This document shows positions 10,622 through 25,946 of a stretch of DNA of 32,000 nt, in pieces. The notes beneath the pieces are model-generated. The model did not search any database. It saw only the letters and a program-made list of their open reading frames with translations, and was not told the DNA's origin. Within the stretch, counting starts at the first letter, position 1, and each line of letters starts with the position of its first letter. Source of the DNA: Desulfobulbus propionicus DSM 2032 (GTDB lineage Bacteria; Desulfobacterota; Desulfobulbia; Desulfobulbales; Desulfobulbaceae); NCBI RefSeq assembly GCF_000186885.1, contig NC_014972.1, positions 900,001 to 932,000 on the forward strand. The letters run 5' to 3'. A program made the position numbers and the translations under genes.

Positions 10622-11122
10622 CTAGCGCGGCAGCCGCTGGAGCAGTACCAGGCCGTCCGGAGTGACCGGCTCGATCTGATGCAGCTGTTCAATCTGGCCC
10701 AAGGGGATAAACCGGCCGTGCTCGATCTCGCTTGCCTGCAGGGTGAACGGGCCGTTGCTGGTACAGGCAAAGATGCGGCCCCAGACGCGGTTGCGATCGT
10801 CCTCGTAGTACTGATCAAAGAGGGGGCGGAGTTTGAGTCCTGTTATGCCCAGCTCTTCATGCAGTTCCCGCCGCGCTGATTCCTCGTAGCTTTCCCCGTC
10901 CAGGACCACGCCGCCGGCGGCCAGGTCCCAGTAGCCGGGATAAATGTCCTTGTTCATCGACCGTTTCTGGATGAACAGCTCGCCAGCGGTGTTGAAGACC
11001 AGGATGTAACTGGCCCGGTGGATGAGGCGTTGCTGGCGCATGATCCGGCGGGTGACCGCGCCCAGGGGAGTGTTGTCACGATCAACGATGGTCACGATCT
11101 CGTCGGCGGGATTGGTGAACAT
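10622..11122 (-). CDS. NUDIX hydrolase, YfcD-like
   Basis: Nudix box GGVVLDGESYEESARRELHEELGI. The flanks (IHRASYILV, NRVWGRIFACTSNGPFTLQ) resemble E. coli YfcD from memory. With ATG at 11122 the AGGAGG sits 8 nt upstream and the rlmKL stop overlaps it (TGATG). An alternative ATG at 11128 lies only 2 nt from the SD. Confidence 0.8.
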   Translation of the reverse strand: MFTNPADEIVTIVDRDNTPLGAVTRRIMRQQRLIHRASYILVFNTAGELFIQKRSMNKDIYPGYWDLAAGGVVLDGESYEESARRELHEELGITGLKLRPLFDQYYEDDRNRVWGRIFACTSNGPFTLQASEIEHGRFIPLGQIEQLHQIEPVTPDGLVLLQRLPR

Positions 11123-13326
11123 CAGCATGCCTCCTGGGGCTCCGAGGGGCTGAACGGGTGACGCATCTCCCAGCAGCGGTGGATGCGGCGGTTGCGCTGG
11201 AAATCCAGAGGCACGGTCTGGTCGCTGATTTCGCGCACGTCGAATTCCTGCTCAAGGGTCGGGTCCAGTTTGAACTTGCGAAAATTGGTGGAGAAGATCA
11301 GCACCCCGGCCTTGGTCAGATGCTGCATGGCCAGGCGGAGCAGGGCAGGGTGATCGTTCTGGATGTCGAACGTTTGCTTACGGTGGCGGGCATTGGAAAA
11401 GGTGGGCGGATCGACAAAGATCACCCCGAAGCGGTCGTGGTTGCGCTTGAGCCAGTCCATGCAGTCGGCCTCGACACACTGGTGCAGCGGTCCGCCAAAG
11501 CCGTTGAGCGCCAGGTTGGCCTGGGCCCGACTCAGGTAGGTTTCGGAAACATCCACCGTGGTGGTGGCGGTGGCGCCGCCCATGGCGGCATAGACGGTGG
11601 CCGAGCCGGTATAGGCGAACAGGTTGAGAAAGGTTTTGCCGTGGGTCAACTGGCCCAGTCGCGTCCGGGTCAGTCGATGATCGAGAAACAGACCGGTATC
11701 GAGGTAGTCGGTGAAGTTGACCAGAAATCGGCCGCCGCCCTCGCGCACTTCGTACAGGGTGCCGGTTCCCGGTTTTTTCTGGTACTGTTGCGCCCCTTTC
11801 TGTTTCTGCCGCGTCTTGATAAAGAGCCGGCTGCGGGGCACGTCGAACACGGCGCGGATGACCTGCAGGGCCTGCTGGAATCGCTCCTCTGCCTTGGCGG
11901 GATCGATGGTGGCCGGCGGGGCGTACTCCTGAACATGGAGCCATTCCTCGTAGCAATCGATGGCCAGGTTGTATTCCGGGATGTCGCCATCATAGAGGCG
12001 AAAACAGGTGATGCCTTCGGCCTCGGCCCACGGCAGGAGGGTGGTGCAGTTCTTGATCAGGCGGTTGGCCAGATCCTCACCGGGGCTGCCGGCCGCCAGG
12101 GCGACCGGGGCCCAGCGGTGCACGGCCTTTTCTCCCATCTGACTCTCCTGACCTACCAGCAGCTGGCACTTGATCGGGCCATTGAACAGCCGGTGCCGCT
12201 CTTGCCACTGCATGCCGGTCATCTCGGCAAGATCGGGGTTGGCGGTGAAAAAGCCGAGCGTCCAGCCGGAAAACTGGCTACGGAATACCCGGCCCAGGCA
12301 GCGGTAGAGATATTTGACCGCCTCTTTTTCCGACAAACGCTCGCCGTAGGGCGGATTGGTCAGCAGGCATCCCCTGGGGCCCGGGCTCTGCAGGCGGGCC
12401 AGTTGCCGTTGTTTGATGACGATCACATCACGCAGTCCGGCGGCGATCACGTTTTTGCGGGCCGCGGCCACCACCTTGGGGTCGGCGTCGTAGCCGATGA
12501 ACTGTGGCCAGGTTTCGGGCAAACTCCGACCTTCGCGGTCCAAGGCCTCCTGGACCAAGCGTTCCCATAACAGCGGGTCATGTTTGTTCCAGGCCATGAA
12601 GCCAAAAGTTTTGCGCAGCAAGCCGGGAGCGCTGTCGCTGAGCATCAGGGCCGCCTCGATCAGCAGGGTGCCGCCGCCGCACATCGGGTCAAGCAGGATG
12701 GGTTCCGCTTGCCGACGATCCAGCCAGCCCGAAAGGCGGACGATGGCCGCGGCCAGGGTCTCCTTGAGCGGCGCCTCACCGCTGCCGGTGCGATAGCCGC
12801 GCCGGTGCAGGCTCTCCCCCGAGAGATCCAGGGAGAGCGATGCGCCGGTACCCTGGACATGGAGGTTGAGACGAATGTCCGGGGCAAAGGCGTTGACATC
12901 CGGACGCTTGCCGAACCGTTTGCGAAATTGGTCGACAATGGCGTCCTTGATCCGCAGCGAGGCGAATTGGCTGTGGGTGAGGGAGGCGTTGACCAGGGTG
13001 GTGTGGACGGCAAAGGTCTGTTGAGCGGTGAAATGCTCGTCCCAGAGGATGTTGCCGGCATGGGCATACAGGGCGTCCGGATTGGGGGCGTCGAACCGGG
13101 CCAGTTCCAGCAGGATGCGCGAGGCAAAACGCGACCACAGACAGGCGCGGTAGCCGCTTTCCAGGTGGCCGCTCCAGGTGACCGCACCGGGATGGGCGTC
13201 GATCTGTTCGCCGCCGAAGGAGGCTATTTCCTCACTGACCAGCGGTTCCAGGCCAAAGCCGCAGGTGGCGGTGAATCTCAGGGGCTGCTTTTTCTTTTTT
13301 TTCGATGTCGGGCGGATGCGGTACAT
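11122..13326 (-). CDS. rlmL: Bifunctional 23S rRNA (G2445-N2 / G2069-N7) methyltransferase RlmKL
   Basis: 734 aa measured from the ATG at 13326. A THUMP-like N-terminus is followed by two SAM-methyltransferase cores (LDPMCGGGTLLIEA ... LLTNPPYGERL; FAYTGSATVYAA ... IFVDPPTFSN). The 472 codons upstream of 13326 in the 1206-aa track ORF are open frame antisense to real genes, not coding. Confidence 0.9.
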   Translation of the reverse strand: MYRIRPTSKKKKKQPLRFTATCGFGLEPLVSEEIASFGGEQIDAHPGAVTWSGHLESGYRACLWSRFASRILLELARFDAPNPDALYAHAGNILWDEHFTAQQTFAVHTTLVNASLTHSQFASLRIKDAIVDQFRKRFGKRPDVNAFAPDIRLNLHVQGTGASLSLDLSGESLHRRGYRTGSGEAPLKETLAAAIVRLSGWLDRRQAEPILLDPMCGGGTLLIEAALMLSDSAPGLLRKTFGFMAWNKHDPLLWERLVQEALDREGRSLPETWPQFIGYDADPKVVAAARKNVIAAGLRDVIVIKQRQLARLQSPGPRGCLLTNPPYGERLSEKEAVKYLYRCLGRVFRSQFSGWTLGFFTANPDLAEMTGMQWQERHRLFNGPIKCQLLVGQESQMGEKAVHRWAPVALAAGSPGEDLANRLIKNCTTLLPWAEAEGITCFRLYDGDIPEYNLAIDCYEEWLHVQEYAPPATIDPAKAEERFQQALQVIRAVFDVPRSRLFIKTRQKQKGAQQYQKKPGTGTLYEVREGGGRFLVNFTDYLDTGLFLDHRLTRTRLGQLTHGKTFLNLFAYTGSATVYAAMGGATATTTVDVSETYLSRAQANLALNGFGGPLHQCVEADCMDWLKRNHDRFGVIFVDPPTFSNARHRKQTFDIQNDHPALLRLAMQHLTKAGVLIFSTNFRKFKLDPTLEQEFDVREISDQTVPLDFQRNRRIHRCWEMRHPFSPSEPQEAC

Positions 13327-13599
13327 GAGAATAGGTGTATTGGGGGCAGAACAATCTGTGAGCAATAGACCCGGTTCCGTCGCGGCGAGAGCAACCGGGG
13401 GAACGGGCGGGGCGGGAATCGTGCTGGCCGGTGAATATCTTGACAAGGTGTGCCGCCTGGCTGCGACATCCCCTCCGAAGTCCGCACTCCGGGGACACGT
13501 CCGCCAGAGGACAGGCGAATTGCCCCGCGCGGCGCTGTCATCCGCCGGCAGGCGCCTCGCAACATAGCCATTCTTGGTGGGGAAGTAAACAAGAACACG

Positions 13600-14355
13600 A
13601 TGAGGGATGAGGGATTCGTTGCGCCGACGGCCAAGGTCGCTCTGGTCAGCGCCGCCATGCCACGCCAACGACCGCCGTCTCCGGGAGAGATCATGGACGA
13701 GCACAATGCAGCACCACACGCACGCGACACGGAGGACAGCCGGCTCAACCGGGAACACGGGCATGCCCTGCACAATATTTTCAGCATCATAATCGCCAAC
13801 GCGGAAATGATCGGCGAGGAATCGAGGGGCATGGAGACGCTGCAACGGCGGCTCGACCGGATCATCGCGGCCAGCCGCCGGGGCGAGCAGTTGGTGGACG
13901 GGATACGCTCCCTTTCCAAGGCACGGCATGCGCCCCGGCCCGAACCCACGGAGCAGGCATCGCTTCCCACCGTTGCCGACGGGAGATTGGGCCGTGTGCT
14001 GATCGTCGACGATGAACCCGATGTGGTGGAGATTCTCCGGAGGTACCTTGAACGGGCCGGGTTGCAGGTTCATGGTTTCATCGACAGCCGCGAGGCCTTG
14101 AACGGGCTGCGCCGGGAACCGTTGGCCTACGATCTGGTGATCACCGACCTCGATATGCCGAACCTGGGTGGAATCGAGTTGCGCGAGCAGCTGCGGACCA
14201 TCCGTCCGGACCTGCCAGTCATCGTCATCACCGGCCATGAAGGGCAGTGTTCCGGGGGGCCGTTCTCGCTGTCCGGTGTCACGGAGTGGTTGTCCAAACC
14301 GATCAACCGGAACCACCTGTTGGACACGGTGGGGCGTCTTTTGCCGCCGGCTTGA
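13600..14355 (+). CDS. HisKA (DHp)-like phosphotransfer domain fused to a receiver domain; no HATPase_c domain
   Basis: The H-box-like helix EHGHALHNIFSIIIANAEMIGEE...LQRRLDRIIAASRRGEQLVDGIRSLSK aligns with the H-box region of the hybrid kinase at 24321-25946 (IAHDFNNLLAAILGYAEL...). An intact REC follows directly (VLIVDDEPD, LVITDLDMP, VIVITG, LSKP). The start is uncertain: ATG 13600 or ATG 13693. Confidence 0.7.
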   Translation: MRDEGFVAPTAKVALVSAAMPRQRPPSPGEIMDEHNAAPHARDTEDSRLNREHGHALHNIFSIIIANAEMIGEESRGMETLQRRLDRIIAASRRGEQLVDGIRSLSKARHAPRPEPTEQASLPTVADGRLGRVLIVDDEPDVVEILRRYLERAGLQVHGFIDSREALNGLRREPLAYDLVITDLDMPNLGGIELREQLRTIRPDLPVIVITGHEGQCSGGPFSLSGVTEWLSKPINRNHLLDTVGRLLPPA

Positions 14356-14467
14356 CATTTTCCGGGACAGCCTGTGTAATGGGCGTATGTGGTAGGTGTT
14401 GTGGGCAGAGTTTCTTGAAAATGTTAGACAATATTCCATGTTCCCGTGCTGTGGAACCGGAGAATGG

Positions 14468-15847
14468 ATGGCTGAAATCCTGATTATCGACGATGACCCC
14501 CTGTTCGCGGAAACCGTGGCCGACAAGCTCGACAGCCTGCGGCACACGTCCCGATGCGCGCACACCTTGACCGCCGGCCTTGCCGCGGCGGTCGAGGGCC
14601 GTTTTGACGTGGTACTGCTCGATGTCTGTCTTCCGGACGGCAACGGCCTGCTGGCCATCGATCGGCTGCGTTCCGTGGCCTCGGACCCGCAGGTGATCAT
14701 CATCACCGGCCAGGGAGATCCGGATGGGGCCGAGCTGGCCATCCGTCACGGCGCTTGGTGCTATCTGGAGAAGAGCTCGATTGTCAAGGAGATCACCCTG
14801 CCATTGACCCGGGCCTTGCAGTACCGCCAGGCCCTGAGCGGACAGAAGGCCGTGCTCAAGACGGTGGAGCGCGACCAGCTGGTCGGCGAAAGTCCCCGTT
14901 TCCTCCAATGCCTGGATATGCTGGCCAAGGCGGCGGCAGCCGATGCCAGCGTCCTTGTTTCCGGGGAGTCAGGAACGGGCAAGGAGGCCTTTGCCCGGGC
15001 CATCCATGCCAACAGCCGCCGCAGGAGCGGCAACTTCGTGGTGGTCGACTGCACCGCCCTGCCGGAACAACTGGTGGAAAGCGTGCTTTTTGGCCATGTC
15101 AAGGGTGCCTTCACCGGCGCCGATCGGGCCAATCGCGGTCTGATCCGCCATGCCGACAAGGGAACGCTTTTTCTCGACGAGATCGGCGAGCTGCCGCTGG
15201 CCACCCAGAAAAGTTTCCTCCGTGTCCTTCAGGAACGCACCTTTTGTCCGGTGGGCAGCCAGGAGGAGTGTCACAGCGATTTTCGCCTGATTTGCGCCAC
15301 CAACCGCGATCTGGTGGCCATGACCGAGAAGGGGGTGTTCCGCGAGGATCTGCTCTACCGTCTGCGGGGACTGTCCCTGCACCTGCCGCCCCTGCGCGAG
15401 CGCGACGGCGACATCCCCCGGTTGGTGGAACATTTCCTCAGCCGCTTGGTGCAGCGGTATGGCCAGGAGAGAAAAGAGTGCTTGCCCGATTTCATGGACT
15501 ATCTCACCAGCTACGCCTGGCCGGGCAATGTCCGCGAGCTGTCCCAGGCGATGGAATCCGCCTTTGCCCATGCGGTCTATTCGCCGGTGCTCTTTCCGCA
15601 ACACCTGCCGGTGCATATCCGCACGGCCCATGCCCGAGCCAACGTTCGCGGCCATGAAACGATCCCGGCCGATGTTCCGAGTTCCGAGGCCATTCTTGCC
15701 TGGCGGGAGGCCAAGGATGCCTTTGAGCGCGAGTACACCCAACGGCTTCTCCGCCACAGTGCTGGCAATATCATGGAAGCCGGCCGACTGTCCGGCCTCT
15801 CCCGCACCCGCCTCTACCAGTTGATCAGGAAGTTTCAGCTTGGCTGA
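14468..15847 (+). CDS. Sigma-54-dependent transcriptional activator (REC - AAA+ - Fis-type HTH; NtrC family)
   Basis: REC domain (ILIIDDD, VVLLDVCLPDGNG, IIITG, LEKS). AAA+ domain with Walker A GESGTGKE, the sigma-54 contact loop GAFTGA, ELPLATQKSFLRVLQE and FREDLLYRL. C-terminal HTH GNIMEAGRLSGLSRTRLYQLIRKF. The ATG at 14468 has GGAG 5 nt upstream. The track start at 14396 is an upstream extension. Confidence 0.9.
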   Translation: MAEILIIDDDPLFAETVADKLDSLRHTSRCAHTLTAGLAAAVEGRFDVVLLDVCLPDGNGLLAIDRLRSVASDPQVIIITGQGDPDGAELAIRHGAWCYLEKSSIVKEITLPLTRALQYRQALSGQKAVLKTVERDQLVGESPRFLQCLDMLAKAAAADASVLVSGESGTGKEAFARAIHANSRRRSGNFVVVDCTALPEQLVESVLFGHVKGAFTGADRANRGLIRHADKGTLFLDEIGELPLATQKSFLRVLQERTFCPVGSQEECHSDFRLICATNRDLVAMTEKGVFREDLLYRLRGLSLHLPPLRERDGDIPRLVEHFLSRLVQRYGQERKECLPDFMDYLTSYAWPGNVRELSQAMESAFAHAVYSPVLFPQHLPVHIRTAHARANVRGHETIPADVPSSEAILAWREAKDAFEREYTQRLLRHSAGNIMEAGRLSGLSRTRLYQLIRKFQLG

Positions 15848-15958: not shown

Positions 15959-15993
15959 GTTCACTTTTCGGCACACTGTGCTTTTTTGTGAAC
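15959..15993. promoter_or_regulatory. Nested palindrome GTTCAC-N6-GCACA-C-TGTGC-N6-GTGAAC; candidate upstream activator site for the adjacent sigma-54 activator
   Basis: Read directly from the sequence. The outer arms GTTCAC (15959-15964) and GTGAAC (15988-15993) and the inner arms GCACA/TGTGC (15971-15981) are perfect inverted repeats. The centre lies about 115 bp upstream of the -24 element. A further inverted copy of CGGCACAC (as GTGTGCCG) lies at 15894-15901. Confidence 0.35.
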
Positions 15994-16090: not shown

Positions 16091-16106
16091 CGGCATGATC
16101 CTTGCC
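16091..16106 (+). promoter_or_regulatory. Sigma-54 (RpoN) -24/-12 promoter candidate: cGGCATgatccTTGCc
   Basis: GG (16092-16093) and GC (16104-16105) are spaced exactly as in the consensus TGGCAC-N5-TTGC. The element lies about 58 nt upstream of the ATG at 16164. It sits immediately downstream of a sigma-54 activator gene and of a T-rich tract (16069-16083). Confidence 0.6.
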
Positions 16107-16163: not shown

Positions 16164-16568
16164 ATGAACGTGCTGTTGTATGCGGCCAAACAGACGGCAA
16201 GCGGTGAACGGCTGAAACAGTCCATCGAGACATTGACGTCCCTGGAATCCCTGACCGATTGCGGGAGCATCGCGGAATTGATCCAGTATCTGCGAAACCC
16301 CGATCCGTTGCCGGAAACCGTGGTGCTCCAGGCGACAAGCCATCAGGATTTGCAGGTGTTCGAACCCTTCCGTTTTCGGCTGGAAATGGTGTTTTTTGTT
16401 CTGGTGCTGCCGGATGCCGATACAGAGACCGTGGCGCGCGGCCATCAGTTGCGGCCGCGTTTCATCGCCTACCAGGACAGCGATTTCAGCGAGGTCGGCG
16501 CCGTGCTGGCCCGGTTGGAATCCCGCCAGGACCATCGTTTTGGCGCCGGCTCTTCGCGCAATCCTTAG
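16164..16568 (+). CDS. Small hypothetical protein (134 aa); possible degenerate receiver-like alpha/beta fold
   Basis: The ATG at 16164 has GAGGA 7 nt upstream. The alternating hydrophobic-strand pattern (NVLLYAA / TVVLQA / FFVLVLP / RFIAYQD) resembles a CheY-like fold, but the acidic pocket and Lys are absent. The track ORF start at 15894 runs through the promoter region. Confidence 0.55.
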   Translation: MNVLLYAAKQTASGERLKQSIETLTSLESLTDCGSIAELIQYLRNPDPLPETVVLQATSHQDLQVFEPFRFRLEMVFFVLVLPDADTETVARGHQLRPRFIAYQDSDFSEVGAVLARLESRQDHRFGAGSSRNP

Positions 16569-16582
16569 ACGGGGTACTCCCA

Positions 16583-18103
16583 ATGAGTCAGGAACAACTC
16601 TTTGCCTCTTTTCTCCTTGACCGTCAGGCCGATCTCGAGATCGCCCTGCCCGCGGAACAGGTGGTCGAGGCCATGCCCCTCGCGGCCCCGATCCAGCCCT
16701 TGCCCACCGGGGCCTTTTTTCTTGAGGGAATCATGCCGTTGCGGGGCGATGTGATCCCGGTAATCAACCTGAAAAAACGGTTGGCCTTGACGGAAACCGC
16801 ATACGGCGACGATGCCAAGGTGGCAGTGATCCAGTTCAACCGCAAGCGGTACGGCCTGTTGGTGGACGATATCCGCGAAGTGCTGCGGGTTTCCCCCCAC
16901 GCTGTCCAGCCTCTCGATCCCTTTCTTCTCACCGAGGAGACGGTGATCGTCGACCTGATCAAGCTGGACCAGGGGCGGCGGACCCTGGAGCTGCTCGATC
17001 TGCGGCGGCTTTTTCCCACGGGCGGGTCCGGCGTCGACGAGGCCCTTGACCATGACGAGCCGCCACCGGCGGTGCAGCGCAGTTATTCGCAGTTCGTCGT
17101 TTTTTCCTGCCGCCAGCAGATTTACGGCATTCCGGTGGGCGATTCGCGGGAGATCTGCTTTTTCAGCGACATTGACCAGACCTTCAAGAGCGGCAAGGTG
17201 GAAGGCGCCCTGCAGCTGCGCGGTCAGACCATCCCGGTGCTGTGCAGCGCGACCCTGCTCGGTTGCGCGGAAGAAACGATCACCCCCACCGAGGAGACCC
17301 GCATCCTGGTGATGCAGTCGGGGCTTCTGTCCTTTGGTTTGATTGTCGACAAGATCCATCAGATTTTGGTGGTGGCCGACGATGCCATCATGGCCATTCC
17401 GGGGCGTCACCTGCCGCATCTGCGGGGCGTGTGCACCTGCGCGCCCTACAACGACATCATGCTGCTCGATGTTCAGGGGTTGATCGGTTCCCAGGCCGAC
17501 AGAATCAGCGCCATGACGCGGCTGCGCAAGAACAACGGCTCGACCGAGGCGGAGGAGGAATCGGCGGCCCGCCACCTCATCACCGAGCACTGCTATCTCG
17601 TGTTTGCCATCGGCAAGCATTATGCAATTGAACTCAAGGATGTGCAGGAAATCATCGGCTGCGGCGATTGCATGCCGATTGCCGGCGATGGCCTGGTGCA
17701 GGGAATCATCAACCTGCGTGGCCGGATCGTGCCGGTGATCCGCCTGCGCAACTTTTACGCCTGTCCAGACCACAACGTGGTGAGCCGGGACCCCAGCCCG
17801 GAGGACAAGCTGATCATCGGCCGGGCCAATGGCAACCTGGTGGCCTTGCTGGTCGATGAAATTATCACTATCTACAAACAGGAACGGTACCACGCCACCC
17901 CGTCGCTCAGGCCTGAGTTGCAGGCGAAAAAGGACACCCTGGACCGGTTGATCGAGTTCATCAACGGCGAGGGGCTGAAGGAGCATGTGCTGGTTGTCAA
18001 TGTCGCCAATTTGCTGCGTCACCATCTCCTGATCGCGGACCAGGAGACGGTGACGCCCGTGGCGGCGCCGGCGGATTTGATCGATTCGCCGCCAATCAAG
18101 TAA
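16583..18103 (+). CDS. Protein with three tandem CheW-like domains
   Basis: 506 aa from the ATG at 16583, 14 nt after the previous stop. Three copies of the CheW core pattern are present: FLEGIMPLRGDVIPVINLKKRL, VEGALQLRGQTIPVLCSATLLG and LVQGIINLRGRIVPVIRLRNFY. Each is followed by a ...GLLVD/GLIVD/ALLVDEI segment. Confidence 0.85.
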   Translation: MSQEQLFASFLLDRQADLEIALPAEQVVEAMPLAAPIQPLPTGAFFLEGIMPLRGDVIPVINLKKRLALTETAYGDDAKVAVIQFNRKRYGLLVDDIREVLRVSPHAVQPLDPFLLTEETVIVDLIKLDQGRRTLELLDLRRLFPTGGSGVDEALDHDEPPPAVQRSYSQFVVFSCRQQIYGIPVGDSREICFFSDIDQTFKSGKVEGALQLRGQTIPVLCSATLLGCAEETITPTEETRILVMQSGLLSFGLIVDKIHQILVVADDAIMAIPGRHLPHLRGVCTCAPYNDIMLLDVQGLIGSQADRISAMTRLRKNNGSTEAEEESAARHLITEHCYLVFAIGKHYAIELKDVQEIIGCGDCMPIAGDGLVQGIINLRGRIVPVIRLRNFYACPDHNVVSRDPSPEDKLIIGRANGNLVALLVDEIITIYKQERYHATPSLRPELQAKKDTLDRLIEFINGEGLKEHVLVVNVANLLRHHLLIADQETVTPVAAPADLIDSPPIK

Positions 18104-18136: not shown

Positions 18137-20863
18137 ATGGAGGAAACAATGACAACTGGAGCGCAACCACCGATGGGCATGGATCTGACCGTACTGGAGA
18201 CCTGGGAAGAGCCCGGATTTATGGTCGACGGCAAGCGGATCATCACCTGGGCCAACGCGGCGTTTCTCCAAGCCTTCGGTTTGGAGGCGCACGAGGTGAT
18301 CGGCAAGATGACCTGCGAGGAGAGCTGTAATCTGCATCTCTGCGGCACCAAGGACTGTCCGGTGGACAAGGCCGGCCGGATGCACAAACCGGTGGCGGCC
18401 GAGGCAATACGCAACCACGGTGCCAGCATCCGCTATTACCGTTCACTGGCCCGGCCAGTGGGCGAGGATGGCGGTCAAACCCTGGTCACCATGACCGACA
18501 TAAGCGACAGAAAACTGCTGGAAGCGCGGTTACGGCAGATGGAAACCGACCTCAACGTCATCCCTACCCCTGTGCTTGAGATTGACGACAAGTTCACCAT
18601 TACCTTCATGAACCCCGCCGGTGCGGCCGTGGCCGGCCTGACCCCGGACGAGGCCGTGGGCAGGAAGTGCTACGATCTGTTCAAGACCCCCCATTGCCGG
18701 ACCGAGAAATGCGCCTGCGCGCGGGCGATGAAGACCGATTCGGTTGTTTCCGAGCAGACCATCGCCCGTCCCCGGGACGGGGTGATCGTGCCGATCAAGT
18801 ACACCGGCGCGCCGATCAAGGATGCCAAGGGCAACATTGTCGGGGCGATTGAATATGTGCTCGATGTCACCGAAGAAAATAAGCAGCAGCGGCTGGCCGA
18901 GGAGAAGATCGAGAACCTCAATGCCATTCCCACGCCGATCATGGCCATGGACACTGATTTTACCATCACCTTCATGAACCCCGCCGGTGCGGCCGTGGCC
19001 GGCCTGACCCCGGACGAGGCCGTGGGCAGGAAGTGCTACGATCTGTTCAAAACCCCCCATTGCCGGACCGAGAAGTGCGCCTGCGCGCGGGCGATGAAGA
19101 CCGATTCGATTGTTTCCGAGCAGACCATTGCCCGTCCCCGGGACGGGGTGATCGTGCCGATCAAGTACACCGGCGCGCCGATCAAGGATGCCAAGGGCAA
19201 CATCAAGGGTGCCCTGGAGTTTATCCTCGACATCACCGAGGAGGCGCGGCAACGCCACGATGCCAACACCAAGATCGAGAACCTCAACGCCATTCCCACG
19301 CCGATCCTGTCCATCGACACCGACTATACCATCACCTTCATCAATCCCGCCGGTGCGGCCGCCGTCGGCCTCACCCCGGACAGCGCCATCGGCCGCAAAT
19401 GCTTTGACCTGTTCAAAACCCCGCATTGCCAGACCGAACGATGCGCCTGCGCGCGGGCAATGAAGTCCGACACGGTGGTCAGCGAGGAAACCATTGCCCG
19501 GCCCCGGGAAGGCATGATCATGCCGATCAAGTACACCGGCGCGCCGATCAAGGACGCCAAGGGCAACATCACCGGCGCGCTTGAGTTCGTCCTCGACATC
19601 ACCGACGAGGCCCGGCAGCGACAGGAGGCCAACGAAAAGATCGAGAATCTCAACGCCATCCCCACGCCGATCTTCTCCATCGACACCGAGTTCGCCATCA
19701 CCTACATCAATCCGGCCGGCGCCAGGGTTTTGGGGGCGAGCGTCGATGAGTTGATCGGTAAAAAATGTTACAGCCTGTTCAACACCACCCACTGCAACAC
19801 CGAACACTGTGCCTGCGGCCAGGCGATGAAAAGCGATAGCGTGGTCGCGGCCAAGACCGTGGCCAGGGTCAACGGCCGCGAGATCCCGCTCAAGTACACC
19901 GGCGCGCCGATCAAGGACGCCAAGGGCAACATCAAGGGCGCCCTGGAGTTTGCCCTCGACATCAGTGCCGAAACCGGGGTTGAGCAACTGGTGAGCCGGG
20001 CCAGTCAGGAGGTGGCCGAGTTGGTGGCCGATTCCCAGCAGCAGATGGAGGAGGTGCGCGGCAACATGCGGTTGATGGGCGATTCGCTCAACCAGGAAGT
20101 AATCCGCCTCGACGAGTCGGAGACGACCATTCGCAGAATGCTCGAATCGTCCACCGAAATGCTCGGGGTGAGCGAGCAGGTCAACAAGCTGGCCGGCTCG
20201 ATGTCGCGCGAGGCGGAAAATGGTCGCAAGGCCGGAGCCGAGGCCGGCGACAAGATGCGGCAGATCAACCGATCGATGCAGCAGAACAACGAGATGGTCG
20301 CCACCCTGGTGTCCCAGGTGGAAAAGATCGGCGGCTTTGTCGATATCATCAAGGAGATCGCCTCGCAAACCAACTTGCTGGCCTTCAACGCCGCCATCGA
20401 GGCCGCGCGCGCCGGCGATGCCGGCCGGGGGTTCGCCGTGGTTGCCGACGAAGTGCGCAAGCTGGCCGAGAACAGCTCGCGCTCGGCGGTGGATATTTCC
20501 AATATCGTCAAGATGGTGGAGAACGACAGCCGGCAGACCATCGCCGCCATGCAGGAGGGCATGCGCATGCTCGATGACGGCTCCCAGGTGATCAGTACCG
20601 CGCTTTCGGCCATGGACGAGATCTCTTCCGGCATCATGACGATCTCGACCTCGGTCGAGGACGTCAGCGGCCGAGCCGCAGCCTTGGCTGACCACGGCCA
20701 CAAGGTGATGGAGCAGATTCAAGCCGTGGTCACGTCCTCCGGCGAGAACCAAAGGACCACGGAAACCGTGCAGACCTCGGTCGGTGACACGGTCAAGGCC
20801 CTGGACCGGTTGATGGCCTCGAGCAGTTCGTTGCAAGAGGCGGTCAACAGTCTGTGCAAATAG
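18137..20863 (+). CDS. Soluble methyl-accepting chemotaxis protein with five N-terminal Cys-rich PAS-like modules
   Basis: The C-terminal signalling domain has the invariant hairpin tip [37 protein letters not shown]. No hydrophobic TM-length segment was seen by eye. The N-terminal ~620 aa are repeated PAS-like units. The alternative ATG at 18149 has a better SD (GGAGGA, 4-5 nt spacer). Confidence 0.9.
18542..20005 (+). repeat. Four in-frame tandem repeats of 366 bp (122 codons) inside the chemoreceptor gene
   Basis: The anchor TTCATGAACC/TTCATCAATC/TACATCAATC recurs at 18605, 18971, 19337 and 19703, exactly 366 bp apart. The block TACACCGGCGCGCCGATCAAGGA(T/C)GCCAAGGGCAACAT is conserved in all four units. 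Confidence 0.92.
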
Positions 20864-20872
20864 GGTGCATTC

Positions 20873-20933: not shown

Positions 20934-21497
20934 ATGACCATTTTTGGCAACAGGATCTTCACCGTGCGTTTGCAGCTGCGGCGCATCGAGCTCGAAGACC
21001 TGCAGCTTTTGGCGCGATGGAGCGGCGACCCCCAGGCCCATGGACAGTACCTGACGCCGGAAAACCATTCCGTCGATCATCTGGGCATGCAGCTACGGGC
21101 GGGGGTATTGTGGAACGAGCGGAACAAGACGTTTTTGATCGAGCTGCGCGACGGCGAGCCCATCGGCACGATCCAATACTGGATTCGCTCCGAGGACCCG
21201 GGAGCGGCGGTGATTGCGGTGAAGATTGCACGGACCGAGGAGCGGAACAAAGGCTACGGGACCGAGGCGCAGAAATATTTGATCCTGTTTCTCTTCAACC
21301 GGCTCGCCATCCGTCGGATCGAGATGTACACCGATGTCAACAACCTGGCCCAGCAGCGCTGCCTGCGCAAACTCGGCTTCGAACTCGCCCAGTCCCTGTC
21401 CTACGCCGATCAACAGGTTCAGCGGCTGGGCTCCCTCTACCGGCTGGATCGGCAGCGATTTGTCCATGAGCCCATCTACCAGTATCCCGATGCCTAA
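20934..21497 (+). CDS. GNAT-family N-acetyltransferase (RimJ/RimL-like)
   Basis: 187 aa from the ATG at 20934, with GGGAGGA 9 nt upstream. The acetyl-CoA-binding motif context is present (RNKGYGTEAQKYLILFLF; NNLAQQRCLRKLGFEL). The track start at 20865 would run through the stem-loop. Confidence 0.85.
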   Translation: MTIFGNRIFTVRLQLRRIELEDLQLLARWSGDPQAHGQYLTPENHSVDHLGMQLRAGVLWNERNKTFLIELRDGEPIGTIQYWIRSEDPGAAVIAVKIARTEERNKGYGTEAQKYLILFLFNRLAIRRIEMYTDVNNLAQQRCLRKLGFELAQSLSYADQQVQRLGSLYRLDRQRFVHEPIYQYPDA

Positions 21498-22521
21498 GCC
21501 GCCAGGGCTTCTTTTTGACCGCAGGTACTACGAGCACGGCATCCCGCAGGTGTCGCTGGAGAACGCGGGCCGGGTGCGCGGCCTCTATCGTACCCTCGAA
21601 GGACCGCAATATGCCGGCCAGCTGCGCACATTCCTCCCGCGCGAGGCCTCGTCGGCCGACATTGAAGCCGTCCATTCGGCCTTTTACCTCGAACAGCTGC
21701 GCGAGCATGTCAATATCGACGATCCCTATTCCTACGACCGCGATACCTATCTGATGGAGCAGAGCCTCTATACGGCGGCCTTGGCCGCCGGCGGCTGCCT
21801 GGAGCTGGCCGATCGGATCCTCGACGGCGAGATCGACTATGGCTTCGCCCTGATCCGCCCTCCCGGACACCATGCCGAACCGGGTCGGGGCATGGGGTTC
21901 TGCGTGTTCAACAATGTGGCGATCACCGCTCAATATCTGCGCCGGGTGTATGGCCTGCGGCGGATTCTCATCGTCGATTTCGACGTCCATCACGGCAATG
22001 GCACCCAGACAGTTTTTTACGAGACCGATCAGGTTTTTTTCGTTTCGATCCATCAGGAAAAAATTTTCCCTTTTTCCGGATCGGCGCGCGAGACCGGCAG
22101 CGACAAGGGACGGGGCTACACCATCAACCTGCCGGTGCACCCGCAGTTCAGCGACCAGGAGTACCTGTATCTGCTCAGCCGGGTTCTCGGCGGGGTGGTG
22201 GAACAGTATCTGCCGCAGATCATCCTTGTTTCCGCCGGATTTGACGGCCATTGCGACGACCCGATCAGCCGTGTCCTGCTGTCCACCCAATGGTATGCCA
22301 CCGTGACGGAACTGCTCAAATACCTGGCCCACGAGGCGTGCAACGACCGGCTGCTGTTCGTGCTGGAAGGAGGGTACAATCCGGACTCGCTGCAGGCCTC
22401 GGTGCTGGTCACGGTGGACAGCCTGCTGCATCCCGCCAGCCGCCGGCCGGGAGTGGTCCATTCCCAACGGGCGGCCAAGATCCTTGAGAATCATCCCCTG
22501 CATGCTTTCTGGACGGTATGA
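21490..22521 (+). CDS. Histone-deacetylase-family zinc amidohydrolase (deacetylase; AcuC / acetylpolyamine amidohydrolase-like)
   Basis: Catalytic motifs are present: RPPGHHA, DFDVHHGNGTQ, SAGFDGH, LEGGY. The ATG at 21490 overlaps the GNAT stop (ATGCCTAA, 8-nt overlap). Confidence 0.9.
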   Translation: MPKPPGLLFDRRYYEHGIPQVSLENAGRVRGLYRTLEGPQYAGQLRTFLPREASSADIEAVHSAFYLEQLREHVNIDDPYSYDRDTYLMEQSLYTAALAAGGCLELADRILDGEIDYGFALIRPPGHHAEPGRGMGFCVFNNVAITAQYLRRVYGLRRILIVDFDVHHGNGTQTVFYETDQVFFVSIHQEKIFPFSGSARETGSDKGRGYTINLPVHPQFSDQEYLYLLSRVLGGVVEQYLPQIILVSAGFDGHCDDPISRVLLSTQWYATVTELLKYLAHEACNDRLLFVLEGGYNPDSLQASVLVTVDSLLHPASRRPGVVHSQRAAKILENHPLHAFWTV

Positions 22522-22556: not shown

Positions 22557-23006
22557 ATGACAAAAAACACAACCGTTGATACCACGTCGCTGCGGACGAT
22601 CTTCGCTGAATGCCGCCAGTGCGGCACCTGTTGCACCTCTTATCGCAAAATCGCCCTCCAGCCCGACGAGGTGGAGTTTATACGAAAGATGGGCGGCCAT
22701 GTCGGGGTGGACATCAGCTTGTCCCAGCTGCGCGGCAAAACCATGGACGAGTTGGTGGCCGAGGCCCGTGCCGACGGCAAGGTGTTCATGATCCACCCCG
22801 ACGACAGGGGATGTATTTTCCTTGAGAAAAGAAATGACAAGCATGTCTGCCGGATCTATCACCACCGGCCGCGCGCCTGTCGAGGATTCCGCTGCAATAT
22901 GGCCGATTCCAGCTTTCTCGCCCTGTTCGGCGCCGACAGCATTTTCCTGCTCGGTCAGGATCGTTTCGGCCTGCCGTTGGCCAGGGACAAGGAGGTGATC
23001 CGCTAG
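22557..23006 (+). CDS. YkgJ-family cysteine-cluster protein (CxxCxxCC; putative Zn/Fe-binding)
   Basis: An N-terminal CRQCGTCC motif plus a second Cys group (CIFL...HVCRIYHHRPRACRGFRC), as in the UPF0153/YkgJ family. No obvious SD was seen. Confidence 0.75.
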   Translation: MTKNTTVDTTSLRTIFAECRQCGTCCTSYRKIALQPDEVEFIRKMGGHVGVDISLSQLRGKTMDELVAEARADGKVFMIHPDDRGCIFLEKRNDKHVCRIYHHRPRACRGFRCNMADSSFLALFGADSIFLLGQDRFGLPLARDKEVIR

Positions 23007-23092: not shown

Positions 23093-23156
23093 TAGACCAA
23101 AGAACAAGGACGAAGACACGCTGTTGCCGTCAGGGGCCATTTCGGGGAGGGACGCC

Positions 23157-24317
23157 ATGCTGACCGAGTTGAACATTCGTAAGTTTCTTGCTCCCGAGAT
23201 TGTTTTTGGCGATGGCGCCATTGAACTGCTCGGGCGCTATGCCCTTAATTTTGGCGCAAGCCGGGTTTTTGTGGTCACCGATGCAGGTATTGCCCAAGCC
23301 GGTCTCGTGGAGCGGGCGATTCAGATTTTGCAGTCCTCCGGGGTGCAGGCGGTGGTGTATGATCGGGTCAGCGCCAATCCCCGCGATTTTGAGGTGATGG
23401 AAGCGGCCGCCCTGTACCGTGAGTCCGGCTGCGACATCATTGTCGCCCTCGGGGGCGGCAGCCCCATGGACTGCGCCAAGGGCGTCAGTATCGTGTCCGC
23501 CAACGACAGGCATGTGCTCGACTTTCAAGGCGTGGACAATGTGGAGGTGCCCGGTCCGCCCTTGATCTGCATTCCCACCACCTCCGGCTCCTCGGCCGAT
23601 GTCTCCCAGTTCGCCATCATCAACAACAGCCAGGAACAGGTCAAGGTCGCGATCATCAGCAAGACCATGGTGCCTGACCTGGCCTTGCTCGACCCTGGGC
23701 TGACCCTCAGCATGGACCGGCATCTGACCCTGTGCACCGGGGTGGATGCCTTGGTGCATGCCATCGAGGCCTATGTGAGTTCAGCCAGTTCGCCGCTGAC
23801 CGACCTGCATGCCTTGGAGGCCATCCGTCTGATCCGCCGTTTCCTCCCCCAGGTGGTGGAGCGGCTCGACGATATCGATCTGCGTGAACAGGTCATGCTT
23901 GCCAGCCTGGAGGCTGGTCTGGCTTTTTCCAACGCCAGTCTGGGCGCCGTGCACGCCATGGCCCACAGTCTGGGGGGCCTGCTCGATCTGCCCCACGGCG
24001 AGTGCAACGCCCTGTTGCTTGACGCGGTGATTGCCTTCAACTACAGTGCGGCGCCGGAACGCTACGATCGCATCGGCGAAATCTTTGGCGTGCAGACGAA
24101 CGGGCTGACGGAGCAAGAACGGCGGCAGGGCTTGCTCCAAGCGATCCGCTCCTTCAAGCGGGACCTGGGTCTGGAGCCCGGGCTCGGTATTAGGGGGGTG
24201 CGGCGGGAGGATATCAGCGTGCTGGCCCGCAAGGCCGTTGCCGACCCCTGCGTGGCCACCAACCCGAAACGTATTCAACTTCGCGATATCGAGGAAATCT
24301 ATGGGGAGGCCTTCTGA
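23157..24317 (+). CDS. Iron-containing (group III) alcohol dehydrogenase
   Basis: GGGSPMDCAKG and the metal-binding histidine context (VDALVHAIEAY; AVHAMAHSLGG). The ATG at 23157 has GGGGAGGG 5 nt upstream. The track start at 23124 is a non-ATG extension. Confidence 0.9.
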   Translation: MLTELNIRKFLAPEIVFGDGAIELLGRYALNFGASRVFVVTDAGIAQAGLVERAIQILQSSGVQAVVYDRVSANPRDFEVMEAAALYRESGCDIIVALGGGSPMDCAKGVSIVSANDRHVLDFQGVDNVEVPGPPLICIPTTSGSSADVSQFAIINNSQEQVKVAIISKTMVPDLALLDPGLTLSMDRHLTLCTGVDALVHAIEAYVSSASSPLTDLHALEAIRLIRRFLPQVVERLDDIDLREQVMLASLEAGLAFSNASLGAVHAMAHSLGGLLDLPHGECNALLLDAVIAFNYSAAPERYDRIGEIFGVQTNGLTEQERRQGLLQAIRSFKRDLGLEPGLGIRGVRREDISVLARKAVADPCVATNPKRIQLRDIEEIYGEAF

Positions 24318-24320
24318 GCA

Positions 24321-25946
24321 ATGAGCCATCGCACCGATGAACACGATCAGTGGGATCACCTCAAGGATGCCATTGTCGGCTTGGGCGAGCGCTCCATCCG
24401 CAAGAGTTATTATCCCGAACTCAAGGCGAAGATCAAAGACCTCGATCAGCAGCGCGTTTTTTTTCAGTCCATCCTCAACAGCATCCCCGACGGGGTGGTG
24501 GTGATGGACCCCTCCGGCAAAATCAGGCAGGCCAACCCCGCCCTCTGCAGGATGTTCGGCTACAGCAACGAGGAGTTGGCAGGACTCGATCCTTCGGTGC
24601 TCTATGAAAACAACTGCGCAATTTTTCGCCATGACGATTTTCCCACCACCTGGTGCCGCCGCTTTGTCCGCAAGGATGGCCGCGTTTTCCTCGGCGAGAC
24701 CCTGAACAGCGAGATTCGAGACGATCAGGGAGGGTTGCTGGGTACCTTGGAGTTGATCCGCGATGTAAGTGAACGACTGAAGGTCATCCGGCAGCAGCGG
24801 CAATTGGAGGAACAGCTGCGCCAATCACAGAAAATGGCTGCCATTGGTACCTTGGCTGGAGGTATTGCTCACGATTTCAATAACTTGCTTGCGGCAATCC
24901 TCGGCTATGCCGAGCTGGCGCTCCTCAAGCTTCCCCCGGGTGGGGCGTTGCAGCGGGAGATTCGTCAGATCCTCAAGGCCGGCGGCAAGGCCTCGGAGCT
25001 GGTCAATCAGATCCTCGCCTTCAGCCGCAAGGAAACCACCAAACGCATCCCCATTCAACCCGGCGTCCTGATCAAGGAGGTCATCAAGTTGCTGCGGGGC
25101 ACCATCCCGTCGACCATCACCATTCGTGAACGAATTGCCGCCACCGACCGCATGATCCTTGCCAATCCCACCCAGTTGCATCAGGTGGTGATGAATCTCT
25201 GTACCAATGCCTTTCATGCCATGGAAGAACAGGGAGGAGAAATGACCCTGAGCCTGGAATCGGTCAGGAAGCTATTGCGGGAAAAGGAAGAAGAGCGCGA
25301 GTGGATCAGGATCAGTGTTGCCGATAATGGCTGCGGGATCGAACCTGCGACCCTGGAACGTATTTTTGAACCCTATTTCACCACCAAACCCAGCGGCAAG
25401 GGAACCGGCATGGGCTTGGCTGTGGTCCACGGAATCGTCGAAAGTCACGGGGGACGGATCGAGGTGAAGAGCACTGTGGGGCAGGGCACCACGGTGCAGG
25501 TCTACTTCCCGGTGGTGGCCGGGGTTGAAGCCCAGCGGCCGTGCAAGGAGGAACAGTCGCTCGTCGGCGGTGATGAATCCATTCTGGTGGTCGATGACGA
25601 ACAGATGGTGGCCGATTATCTCAAGGGTTTTCTTGAGCAACTAGGCTATCGGATCACGATTTGTAACGACGGCAGCAGCGCCTTGGCGTTGTTTGAGCAC
25701 AATCCCCAAGCGTTTGATTTGGTGATCACCGATCAGACCATGCCCGGCAAGACGGGTTTTGAGATGGCCCGCAACATGCTGGCCCTGCGGCCCGACCTGC
25801 CGATCATCCTTTGCTCGGGCTACAGCTCGGCCCTTTCGCCCGAGCGGGTCGCCAAGGCCGGCATCCGCGAGTTCATGATGAAGCCGGTCTCCCTGCATGA
25901 CCTCGCCCCGGTCATCCGCGCGGTTTTACCGAACAGACCATCCTGA
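24321..25946 (+). CDS. PAS-domain hybrid sensor histidine kinase (PAS - HisKA - HATPase_c - REC), apparently cytoplasmic
   Basis: PAS (FFQSILNSIPDGVVVMDPSGKI...), H-box GIAHDFNNLLAAILGYAEL, N-box VMNLCTNAFHAM, G-boxes VADNGCGI and GKGTGMGLAVV, and REC (ILVVDDE, LVITDQTMPGKTG, LCSGY, MKP). It starts 3 nt after the ADH stop. Confidence 0.9.
   Translation: MSHRTDEHDQWDHLKDAIVGLGERSIRKSYYPELKAKIKDLDQQRVFFQSILNSIPDGVVVMDPSGKIRQANPALCRMFGYSNEELAGLDPSVLYENNCAIFRHDDFPTTWCRRFVRKDGRVFLGETLNSEIRDDQGGLLGTLELIRDVSERLKVIRQQRQLEEQLRQSQKMAAIGTLAGGIAHDFNNLLAAILGYAELALLKLPPGGALQREIRQILKAGGKASELVNQILAFSRKETTKRIPIQPGVLIKEVIKLLRGTIPSTITIRERIAATDRMILANPTQLHQVVMNLCTNAFHAMEEQGGEMTLSLESVRKLLREKEEEREWIRISVADNGCGIEPATLERIFEPYFTTKPSGKGTGMGLAVVHGIVESHGGRIEVKSTVGQGTTVQVYFPVVAGVEAQRPCKEEQSLVGGDESILVVDDEQMVADYLKGFLEQLGYRITICNDGSSALALFEHNPQAFDLVITDQTMPGKTGFEMARNMLALRPDLPIILCSGYSSALSPERVAKAGIREFMMKPVSLHDLAPVIRAVLPNRPS

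Follow-up and report, generated by a model that had tools for sequence, protein, structure and literature searches.

We analysed a 32,000-nucleotide (nt) stretch of the Desulfobulbus propionicus DSM 2032 genome (NC_014972.1, positions 900,001 to 932,000 of the forward strand; hereafter the window). In this window, a preliminary description made from the letters alone had reported three CheW-like units within a single open reading frame (ORF) of 506 amino acids, located next to a gene for a soluble chemoreceptor. This ORF, here called cheW3, was examined by translation, Pfam and NCBIfam searches, a hidden Markov model (HMM) built for this analysis, AlphaFold2, Foldseek, phylogenetic trees and synteny. 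The gene, its three domains (D1 to D3) and the gene of the partner receptor, a methyl-accepting chemotaxis protein (MCP), lie in the window as follows.

16583..18103, + strand: cheW3, 506 aa, three CheW-like domains only (translation, three Pfam CheW matches, orthologues of ~500 aa)
16595..17038, + strand: CheW domain 1 (D1), residues 5-152 by the HMM, the most canonical-looking
17075..17518, + strand: CheW domain 2 (D2), residues 165-312 by the HMM, followed by helix 297-313 and a disordered linker
17579..18043, + strand: CheW domain 3 (D3), residues 333-487 by the HMM, the most conserved among orthologues
18137..20863, + strand: partner receptor, a soluble MCP of 908 aa with five PAS domains and one signalling domain (Pfam)

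Three CheW-like domains in one protein

The three reported units were borne out by Pfam, each of them being significant alone. With the whole product, the CheW model (PF01584) matched three stretches with a total of 190 bits. When the thirds of the protein were scored singly, D1, D2 and D3 reached 79.1, 64.1 and 59.2 bits at a cut-off of 23.5 bits, each spanning nearly all of the 138 model positions. The domain count called for in the preliminary description therefore came to three matches and not one, and besides CheW neither Pfam nor NCBIfam returned anything significant. The unit limits originally proposed (1-150, 170-310 and 335-500) are close to those of the HMM, and the core motifs quoted for each unit stand in the translation as quoted, with GIMPLRGDVIPV, GALQLRGQTIPV and GIINLRGRIVPV all present. 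What did not hold was the view of the middle unit as the most divergent one: by Pfam score it is D3, with the lowest value of the three, that lies furthest from the family model, and both D2 and D3 take derived positions in the trees. In favour of the ATG at 16583 as start, the N-terminus M..EQLFASF is conserved in 25 aligned orthologues.

Structure prediction by AlphaFold2, with 118 orthologues in the input, gave a mean predicted local distance difference test score (pLDDT) of 85.5, with values mostly >85 in the domains. The model comprises three compact CheW-like domains, disordered linkers at residues 148-160 and 319-334, and a helix at 297-313. A Foldseek search of this model against the PDB returned CheW and CheA-P5 structures only, the CheW entries 2qdl, 6s1k_C, 8c5v_E and 2ch4 showing target-normalised template modelling (TM) scores of 0.77-0.84. 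No solved multi-CheW chain was found in the PDB search. As modelled, CheW3 is a protein with three intact CheW folds, of the two-subdomain beta-barrel type common to CheW and CheA-P5.

Orthologues and conservation of the locus

A word-index search yielded 451 relatives of CheW3. Among the matches listed (120 of 451), all were ~480-530 aa long and showed 44-80% identity with at least 92% query coverage; the closest protein relatives belong to Desulfobulbus. In a scan of loci using one genome per species, 74 Desulfobacterota loci (Desulfobulbales and Desulfobacterales) were found to encode a full-length CheW3 with 42-80% identity, in the genera Desulfobulbus, Desulfogranum, Desulfocapsa, Desulfopila, Desulfofustis, Desulfotalea, Desulforhopalus, Desulfosarcina and Desulfobacter. 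Among these orthologues, linker lengths are kept, as are the N-terminus and the limits of the domains. The family is nevertheless sporadic: in an even sample of the phylum, 5 of 401 genomes had a match, and a match was likewise lacking in five further genomes of the genus. In the metagenome-assembled genome JAHJNL01, two copies of the CheW3/PAS-MCP/GNAT/HDAC cassette described below were seen on two contigs.

These orthologues bear directly on whether the triple domain could be a fusion artefact, in which three separate cheW genes were joined by a sequencing or assembly error. The frame of cheW3 is uninterrupted in a complete, single-contig genome of 3,851,869 bp, the ~500-aa architecture recurs in >100 independent assemblies and the linkers are conserved in length. 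As full-length orthologues occur in many assemblies, we consider such an artefact excluded for practical purposes.

The pairing with a soluble multi-PAS receptor, already pointed out in the preliminary description together with the correct distance of 33 nt between cheW3 and the MCP start at 18137, turned out to be a constant feature. Counting only those of the 74 loci that were long enough to show each gene, an MCP gene adjoins cheW3 downstream in 64/64 loci. It is followed by a GNAT acetyltransferase gene in 51/52, an HDAC-family deacetylase gene in 47/48 and a gene for a CxxCxxCC protein in 45/48.

Receptor-binding residues and the receptor tip

The interface residues of E. coli CheW (review PMC13098124) were mapped onto D1-D3 and their invariance was assessed across the 118 orthologues. 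In each domain, the residues equivalent to E38 and R62, which with G57 lie at the binding sites for receptor and kinase, are invariant, namely E29/R54 in D1, E190/R213 in D2 and E356/R379 in D3. On the receptor face, the equivalents of I33, V88, V105 and V108 remain hydrophobic throughout, and the equivalent of V87 is Lys or Arg in each domain. The equivalent of G57 is invariant in D1 (G49) and D2 (G208). In the case of D3, N377 is invariant and the domain has a strongly conserved surface of its own, formed by H437, S441 and L442.

In the partner MCP, MCPsignal matched once (residues 685-864), and a single tip motif is present. The tip sequence IASQTN(L/M)LAFNA...EVRKLAE is common to all examined partner MCPs, regardless of whether their genes stand in GNAT-type cassettes, in the CheR/CheD-type cassettes described below or in bare receptor/CheW3 pairs, and in 55 orthologous partner MCPs the conservation of LAFNA...EVRKLAE is at least 90%. 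Among the 15 MCPs of the D. propionicus genome, LAFNA occurs in this one alone (MCP residues ~747-775, window 20400-20440). The other MCPs examined, taken from the same loci, from F9 clusters and from a full Che cluster, have LALNA, or LAVNG in the case of one F9-cluster receptor. The Leu that is replaced by Phe in LAFNA corresponds to L138 of T. maritima TM14, a CheW contact mapped by nuclear magnetic resonance (PMC13098124). This change of the tip at a CheW-contact residue is the best evidence that receptor and scaffold form a dedicated pair.

The two arms of the partner MCP comprise ~151 and 147 residues, or 21-22 heptads each. The resulting heptad count is ~42-44H, with 44H being the receptor class expected for F9, but 11 of the 15 MCPs of the genome share a C-terminal arm (C-arm) of 147 aa, so that arm length alone cannot separate classes. 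Regarding adaptation, no conserved methylation-consensus sites were found in the 55 GNAT-type receptors (at most 5/55 at any position), nor was there a conserved lysine replacing such sites in their adaptation region. In contrast, receptors of CheR/CheD cassettes keep methylation-consensus sites at positions -88, -81 and +74 from the tip, and their C-arm is 126 residues long versus 145-147 in the GNAT/HDAC type.

Kinases in cis and elsewhere in the genome

In the window, Pfam detected no CheA, CheY, CheB or CheR. The CheA, CheB and CheR of this genome were then compared by tblastn with the 74 related loci within a range of 8 kb. Of the 74, one contained a genuine CheA gene, which runs opposite to cheW3; CheR gave no hit, and for CheB the matches were confined to the receiver domain.

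The D. propionicus genome itself contains four CheA clusters, one classical, two F5-type and one ChpA-like, and each of them has its own single-domain CheW. The F5-type CheA has two CheW-like domains plus a C-terminal receiver. HMMER returned three CheW hits for each of the two F5-type CheAs (2089003-2091876 and 2597117-2599825), and we considered whether these proteins might have three CheW domains as well. This was rejected, as each has two domains, the first being split by an insertion; the two-domain reading agrees with bioRxiv 10.1101/2023.09.19.558490. As a side observation, a DDE transposase is encoded directly after the first F5-type cluster (14142-15239 of the extracted locus).

CheA, detected by its dimerisation domain (PF02895), was present in all 12 cassette-bearing genomes checked, with 1-5 matches each. 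In the genome with a single match, the only detected CheA is a 77%-identical orthologue of the F5-type CheA at ~2.09 Mb, and it has CheW, CheB and CheR beside it.

Other CheW3 lineages and phylogeny

An exhaustive HMMER search revealed many collinear proteins of ~500 aa with 24-33% identity to CheW3, and these were found in several types of gene context. The order CheW3/PAS-MCP/GNAT/HDAC/CxxCxxCC was encountered again in a case in which CheW3 is only 28% identical. The order PAS-MCP/CheR/CheD/CheW3 occurs in Dyella, Bdellovibrio, Undibacterium and metagenomes, and a third context is a bare PAS-MCP/CheW3 pair. In another Desulfobacterota genome, a CheW3 with 27% identity is encoded in a locus without CheA, consisting of a sigma-54 activator, a hybrid kinase, a three-CZB MCP, a single CheW, the CheW3 and a multi-PAS protein. 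The last group is made up of classical F9 clusters and one full Che cluster, with the genuine F9 gene order seen in two comparison loci.

In a domain tree of 36 CheW3 proteins, D1, D2 and D3 each occupy one side of a branch, with support values of 99/96, 92/92 and 93/93. These positional branches indicate a single old triplication with positional orthology. The tree was extended by kinase-linked CheW3 proteins of known context and by a near relative (P0411). In the maximum likelihood (ML) tree, the D1, D2 and D3 domains of the kinase-less, PAS-linked proteins form clades supported by 98/98, 91/86 and 99/90, and three bona fide or likely F9 CheW3 proteins form D1, D2 and D3 clades of their own (98/98, 99/96 and 99/95). 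The backbone of the extended tree was not resolved, and in approximately unbiased (AU) tests joint clades of F9 and window-lineage domains were not rejected for D2 (p = 0.27) and D3 (p = 0.06). The separate ML clades point to a CheW3 lineage distinct from that of F9, which could have arisen by a triplication either shared with F9 or independent of it. Altogether, the CheW3 described here appears to belong to a distinct and widespread PAS-MCP/CheW3 lineage without a linked kinase gene, and by definition it falls outside the F9 clusters.

Gene cassette and regulation

The remaining genes and elements around cheW3 are listed here by their position in the window.

13450..14355, + strand: DHp(HisKA)-receiver protein, upstream of the activator (Response_reg 82.9 bits; HisKA 23.7 bits, below its cut-off of 26.9)
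14396..15847, + strand: sigma-54 enhancer-binding protein (REC-AAA+-HTH), candidate activator of the operon (Pfam)
16092..16106, + strand: sigma-54 -24/-12 promoter-like element GGCATGATCCTTGCC, read from the sequence, 57 nt upstream of the small ORF
16164..16568, + strand: pseudo-receiver ORF (the small ORF), 134 aa, ending 14 nt before cheW3 (upstream family, fold)
20934..21497, + strand: GNAT acetyltransferase (Acetyltransf_3; Pfam), start codon uncertain, either GTG at 20865 or ATG at 20934
21490..22521, + strand: HDAC-family deacetylase, overlapping the end of the GNAT gene (Pfam Hist_deacetyl, 315.7 bits)
22557..23006, + strand: CxxCxxCC protein (putative Zn/Fe-chelating), the last conserved gene of the cassette (Pfam)
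23124-24317: Fe-ADH
24321-25946: PAS hybrid kinase

A homologue of the sigma-54 activator is encoded upstream in 33/58 loci. The -24/-12 motif is found upstream of cheW3 in 27/67 related loci, with ~0.07 per locus expected by chance, and usually stands ~480-590 nt before cheW3, that is, directly before the small ORF. From these sequence features, the cassette of pseudo-receiver, CheW3, multi-PAS MCP, GNAT, HDAC and CxxCxxCC protein is probably driven by sigma-54. At 15959-15993, ~100 nt upstream of the -24/-12 element, there is an imperfect inverted repeat, TGTTCAC...GTGAACG, that encloses the palindrome GGCACACTGTGC and is a candidate binding site for the activator. Further upstream, the ORF 11122-14742 (- strand, 1206 aa) shows Pfam RlmL/THUMP/methyltransferase matches only from residue 490 on, and its 5' part overlaps the + strand genes for the DHp-receiver protein and the activator. 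The start of this rlmKL-like gene is thus probably near 13300.

The small ORF is a member of a conserved upstream family present in 38 loci. It had no match in Pfam, including Response_reg. AlphaFold2 predicted a receiver-like (beta-alpha)5 fold (pLDDT 87.4, predicted TM score (pTM) 0.81), for which the best PDB matches by Foldseek are the receiver domains of Rcp1, TadZ and RcsB, with TM scores of ~0.6-0.7. The receiver acidic pocket and the Thr and Lys at the expected strand ends are absent. In most relatives, a four-Cys motif, CxxxCx(3-4)CxxRC, follows strand 1 near the N-terminus; it is deleted in Desulfobulbus and Desulfogranum. Membership of CheV, a fusion of CheW and receiver, was considered and rejected, as the receiver-like protein is encoded by a separate gene and is without the phospho-acceptor residues.

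Comparison with known systems

Proteins of three CheW-like domains have been catalogued before, and the novelty implied for this arrangement in the preliminary description was not upheld. Vass, Branscum, Bourret and Foster define CheW.III as three CheW-like domains with no other detectable domain, estimate it to be ~1-3% as abundant as single-domain CheW, and propose that such proteins serve unusual MCPs (bioRxiv 10.1101/2022.05.07.491035 and.491037). As far as these two preprints relate it, the assignment of CheW.III to the F9 class goes back to Wuichet and Zhulin. With three CheW-like domains and nothing else, the CheW3 of the window fits the CheW.III definition exactly. The classification of Vass et al., however, is one by architecture, and neither the kinase-less lineage linked to PAS-MCPs nor the GNAT/HDAC cassette is described there.

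A triple CheW already described is VC1402 of V. cholerae cluster I. With the CheA VC1397 as the other component, it provides the paired baseplates of a double-layer array in the cytoplasm, which DosM holds together and whose formation does not require CheA (PMC7534058; PMC9321776). Similarly to VC1402, the CheW3 of the window is a single polypeptide of three CheW domains encoded beside a cytoplasmic chemoreceptor. According to Mo et al. 2022 (PMC9321776), DosM plus CheW3 is the signature of F9; full F9 clusters were found in 64/2781 species and partial ones, without CheA or CheY, in 8. In Desulfobacterota, F9 was seen in 2/54, both in other lineages than the hosts of the cassette (PMC9321776). 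As DosM was required in that survey, PAS-MCP/CheW3 cassettes were not counted. DosM has two signalling domains and usually no sensor, whereas the receptor here has five PAS domains and one signalling domain. In addition, an F9 cluster carries CheB, HEAT, CheR, CheY and CheA (in the order DosM-W3-B-.-R-Y-A), none of which is present here. With neither a tandem-signalling DosM as neighbour nor CheA, CheY, CheB or CheR, membership of an F9 cluster was rejected.

Partial F9 sets, consisting of dosM, cheW3 and cheBR without cheA and cheY, have been reported from Nitratiruptor, Nautilia and others, with the proposal that CheA is borrowed from another class (PMC9321776). They resemble the present cassette in combining CheW3 and a cytoplasmic receptor in a cluster without a kinase gene, but they keep DosM and CheB/CheR, which the cassette has not. 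Closer in kind are the cassettes of Dyella, Undibacterium, Bdellovibrio and metagenomes, which share the D1-D3 clades, the LAFNA tip, a soluble multi-PAS MCP and the lack of a CheA in cis. These sister cassettes differ in their reversed order with the MCP first, in having CheR/CheD in place of GNAT/HDAC and in their shorter receptors with methylation sites. No description of the PAS-MCP/CheR/CheD/CheW3 cassettes was found in the literature searched, and none of the cassette in the window.

Interpretation

With a probability of roughly 0.6, we interpret CheW3 as the dedicated trivalent coupling or scaffold protein of the soluble five-PAS receptor in a cytoplasmic array. Beside the altered tip, the adjacency of CheW3 and PAS-MCP in distant relatives of 24-33% identity (Dyella, Bdellovibrio, Undibacterium and metagenomes) argues for this. 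Each CheW3 domain would hold the tip of one receptor dimer, so that one CheW3 would either clamp the three dimers of a trimer-of-dimers or supply half of a six-membered CheW ring. In this way, CheW3 might nucleate a cytoplasmic hexagonal receptor array, as the V. cholerae triple CheW does with DosM. For its output, such an array would either borrow a CheA encoded elsewhere or work without a kinase. If a kinase is borrowed, the F5-type CheA with two CheW-like domains would be the most likely one; in one of the genomes with the cassette, no other CheA was detected. The idea already put forward in the preliminary description, of a multivalent scaffold able to build a kinase-free lattice, appears reasonable, since the receptor-binding core is kept in all three domains, no CheA is encoded within 8 kb in 73/74 loci, and arrays of the V. 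cholerae triple CheW and its receptor are still built when CheA is missing (PMC7534058; PMC9321776).

In E. coli, as far as the review PMC13098124 relates the work of Cassidy 2015 and Pinas 2022, hexameric rings made of CheW only exist, bind receptors and raise cooperativity. By analogy, two CheW3 molecules could form a CheW-only ring, although the E. coli rings consist of six separate CheW monomers and R117, E121 and F122 are not conserved in CheW3. The lack of conservation of these three E. coli ring contacts is one of several observations that weigh against our interpretation. The G57 equivalent of D3, G374, is Gly in 50% of the orthologues (88% across the 36 CheW3 proteins of the domain tree). 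The pTM of the AlphaFold2 monomer is only 0.45, which implies no fixed arrangement of the domains towards each other, and thus the model does not choose between half-ring and trimer-clamp. The presence of CheA in all 12 cassette-bearing genomes checked means that a kinase-free mode is not required. Finally, 10 further MCPs encoded in the genome, among them those of both F5 clusters, have a C-arm of 147 aa like the PAS-MCP, which would permit mixed arrays rather than a separate one.

The last two of these points make coupling to CheA in trans possible, and an ordinary role of this kind is the alternative that we take most seriously, even if it remains doubtful. CheW3 would then link the PAS-MCP to one of the four CheAs, most likely the F5-type one at ~2.09 Mb; the pair would be one more input for redox or energy taxis and the triple domain would only raise avidity. 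The 12/12 occurrence of PF02895, the 77%-identical F5-type orthologue as the only detected CheA of one cassette genome, the C-arm length in common with the MCPs of both F5 clusters and the invariance of the interface-1 equivalent of G57 in D1 and D2 all agree with such a role. It accounts less well for the lack of linkage between cheW3 and cheA in 73/74 loci and in the distant cassettes, for a receptor tip that none of the other MCPs encoded in the genome has, and for the fact that every CheA cluster already has its own single-domain CheW. Moreover, the 55 partner MCPs are without conserved methylation-consensus sites, though the genome has CheR and CheB. A different origin would be that of a degenerate remnant of a classical F9 cluster that has lost DosM, CheA, CheY, CheB and CheR. 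The identical three-CheW architecture, the partial F9 sets without CheA and CheY (PMC9321776) and the AU tests, in which joint D2 and D3 clades were not rejected, are in line with this view. We nonetheless regard it as unlikely, as in the ML trees the F9 CheW3 proteins stand in D1-D3 clades apart from those of the window lineage, the partner is a sensor-bearing, single-tip PAS-MCP and not DosM, and the cassette is stable and widespread instead of decaying.

In a further alternative, the system would be a kinase-independent device, in which output and adaptation of the lattice run via GNAT, HDAC and the CxxCxxCC protein, with the pseudo-receiver as adaptor, replacing phosphotransfer and methylation. 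The near-constant presence of the three genes after the MCP (51/52, 47/48 and 45/48 loci) and their recurrence in a cassette with a CheW3 only 28% identical point in this direction. So does the comparison with the sister cassettes, which have CheR and CheD as modification genes instead and whose receptors keep the methylation-consensus sites that are missing in GNAT-type receptors. In the literature searched, no paper was found that combines chemoreceptor, CheW, GNAT and histone deacetylase. Against such a device stands the absence of a conserved lysine in the adaptation region of the 55 receptors, and gene linkage alone does not establish a functional link to the array. From what is known of these families, polyamines or other small molecules are equally plausible substrates for GNAT (Acetyltransf_3)/HDAC pairs. 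Overall, a kinase-independent device of this kind seems quite improbable. On a similarly speculative level, we can conceive, as a long shot, of the PAS-MCP-linked CheW3 lineage as a chemosensory module in its own right and not as a broken F9 system, namely a kinase-free lattice of a soluble redox-type receptor and its trivalent scaffold, the state of which would be read or reset by GNAT/HDAC in Desulfobacterota and by CheR/CheD in the sister cassettes. If this were true, the chemoreceptor array would have an output other than phosphotransfer. In a more modest form of this view, only the triplication of CheW in the lineage would have taken place independently of the F9 one.

So far, triple-CheW proteins have been regarded solely as markers of F9 cytoplasmic arrays, and surveys requiring DosM missed the lineage of the window. 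The present results add a distinct CheW3 lineage that, in several phyla and at least three types of cassette, is tied to soluble, sensor-bearing PAS receptors, always without a kinase gene and with a partner receptor whose tip is altered at a CheW-contact residue. This offers a simple two-gene system for studying how the valency of CheW shapes receptor lattices and whether an array can work in the absence of CheA. For sulfate reducers, it marks a conserved, probably sigma-54-controlled, redox-sensing cassette.

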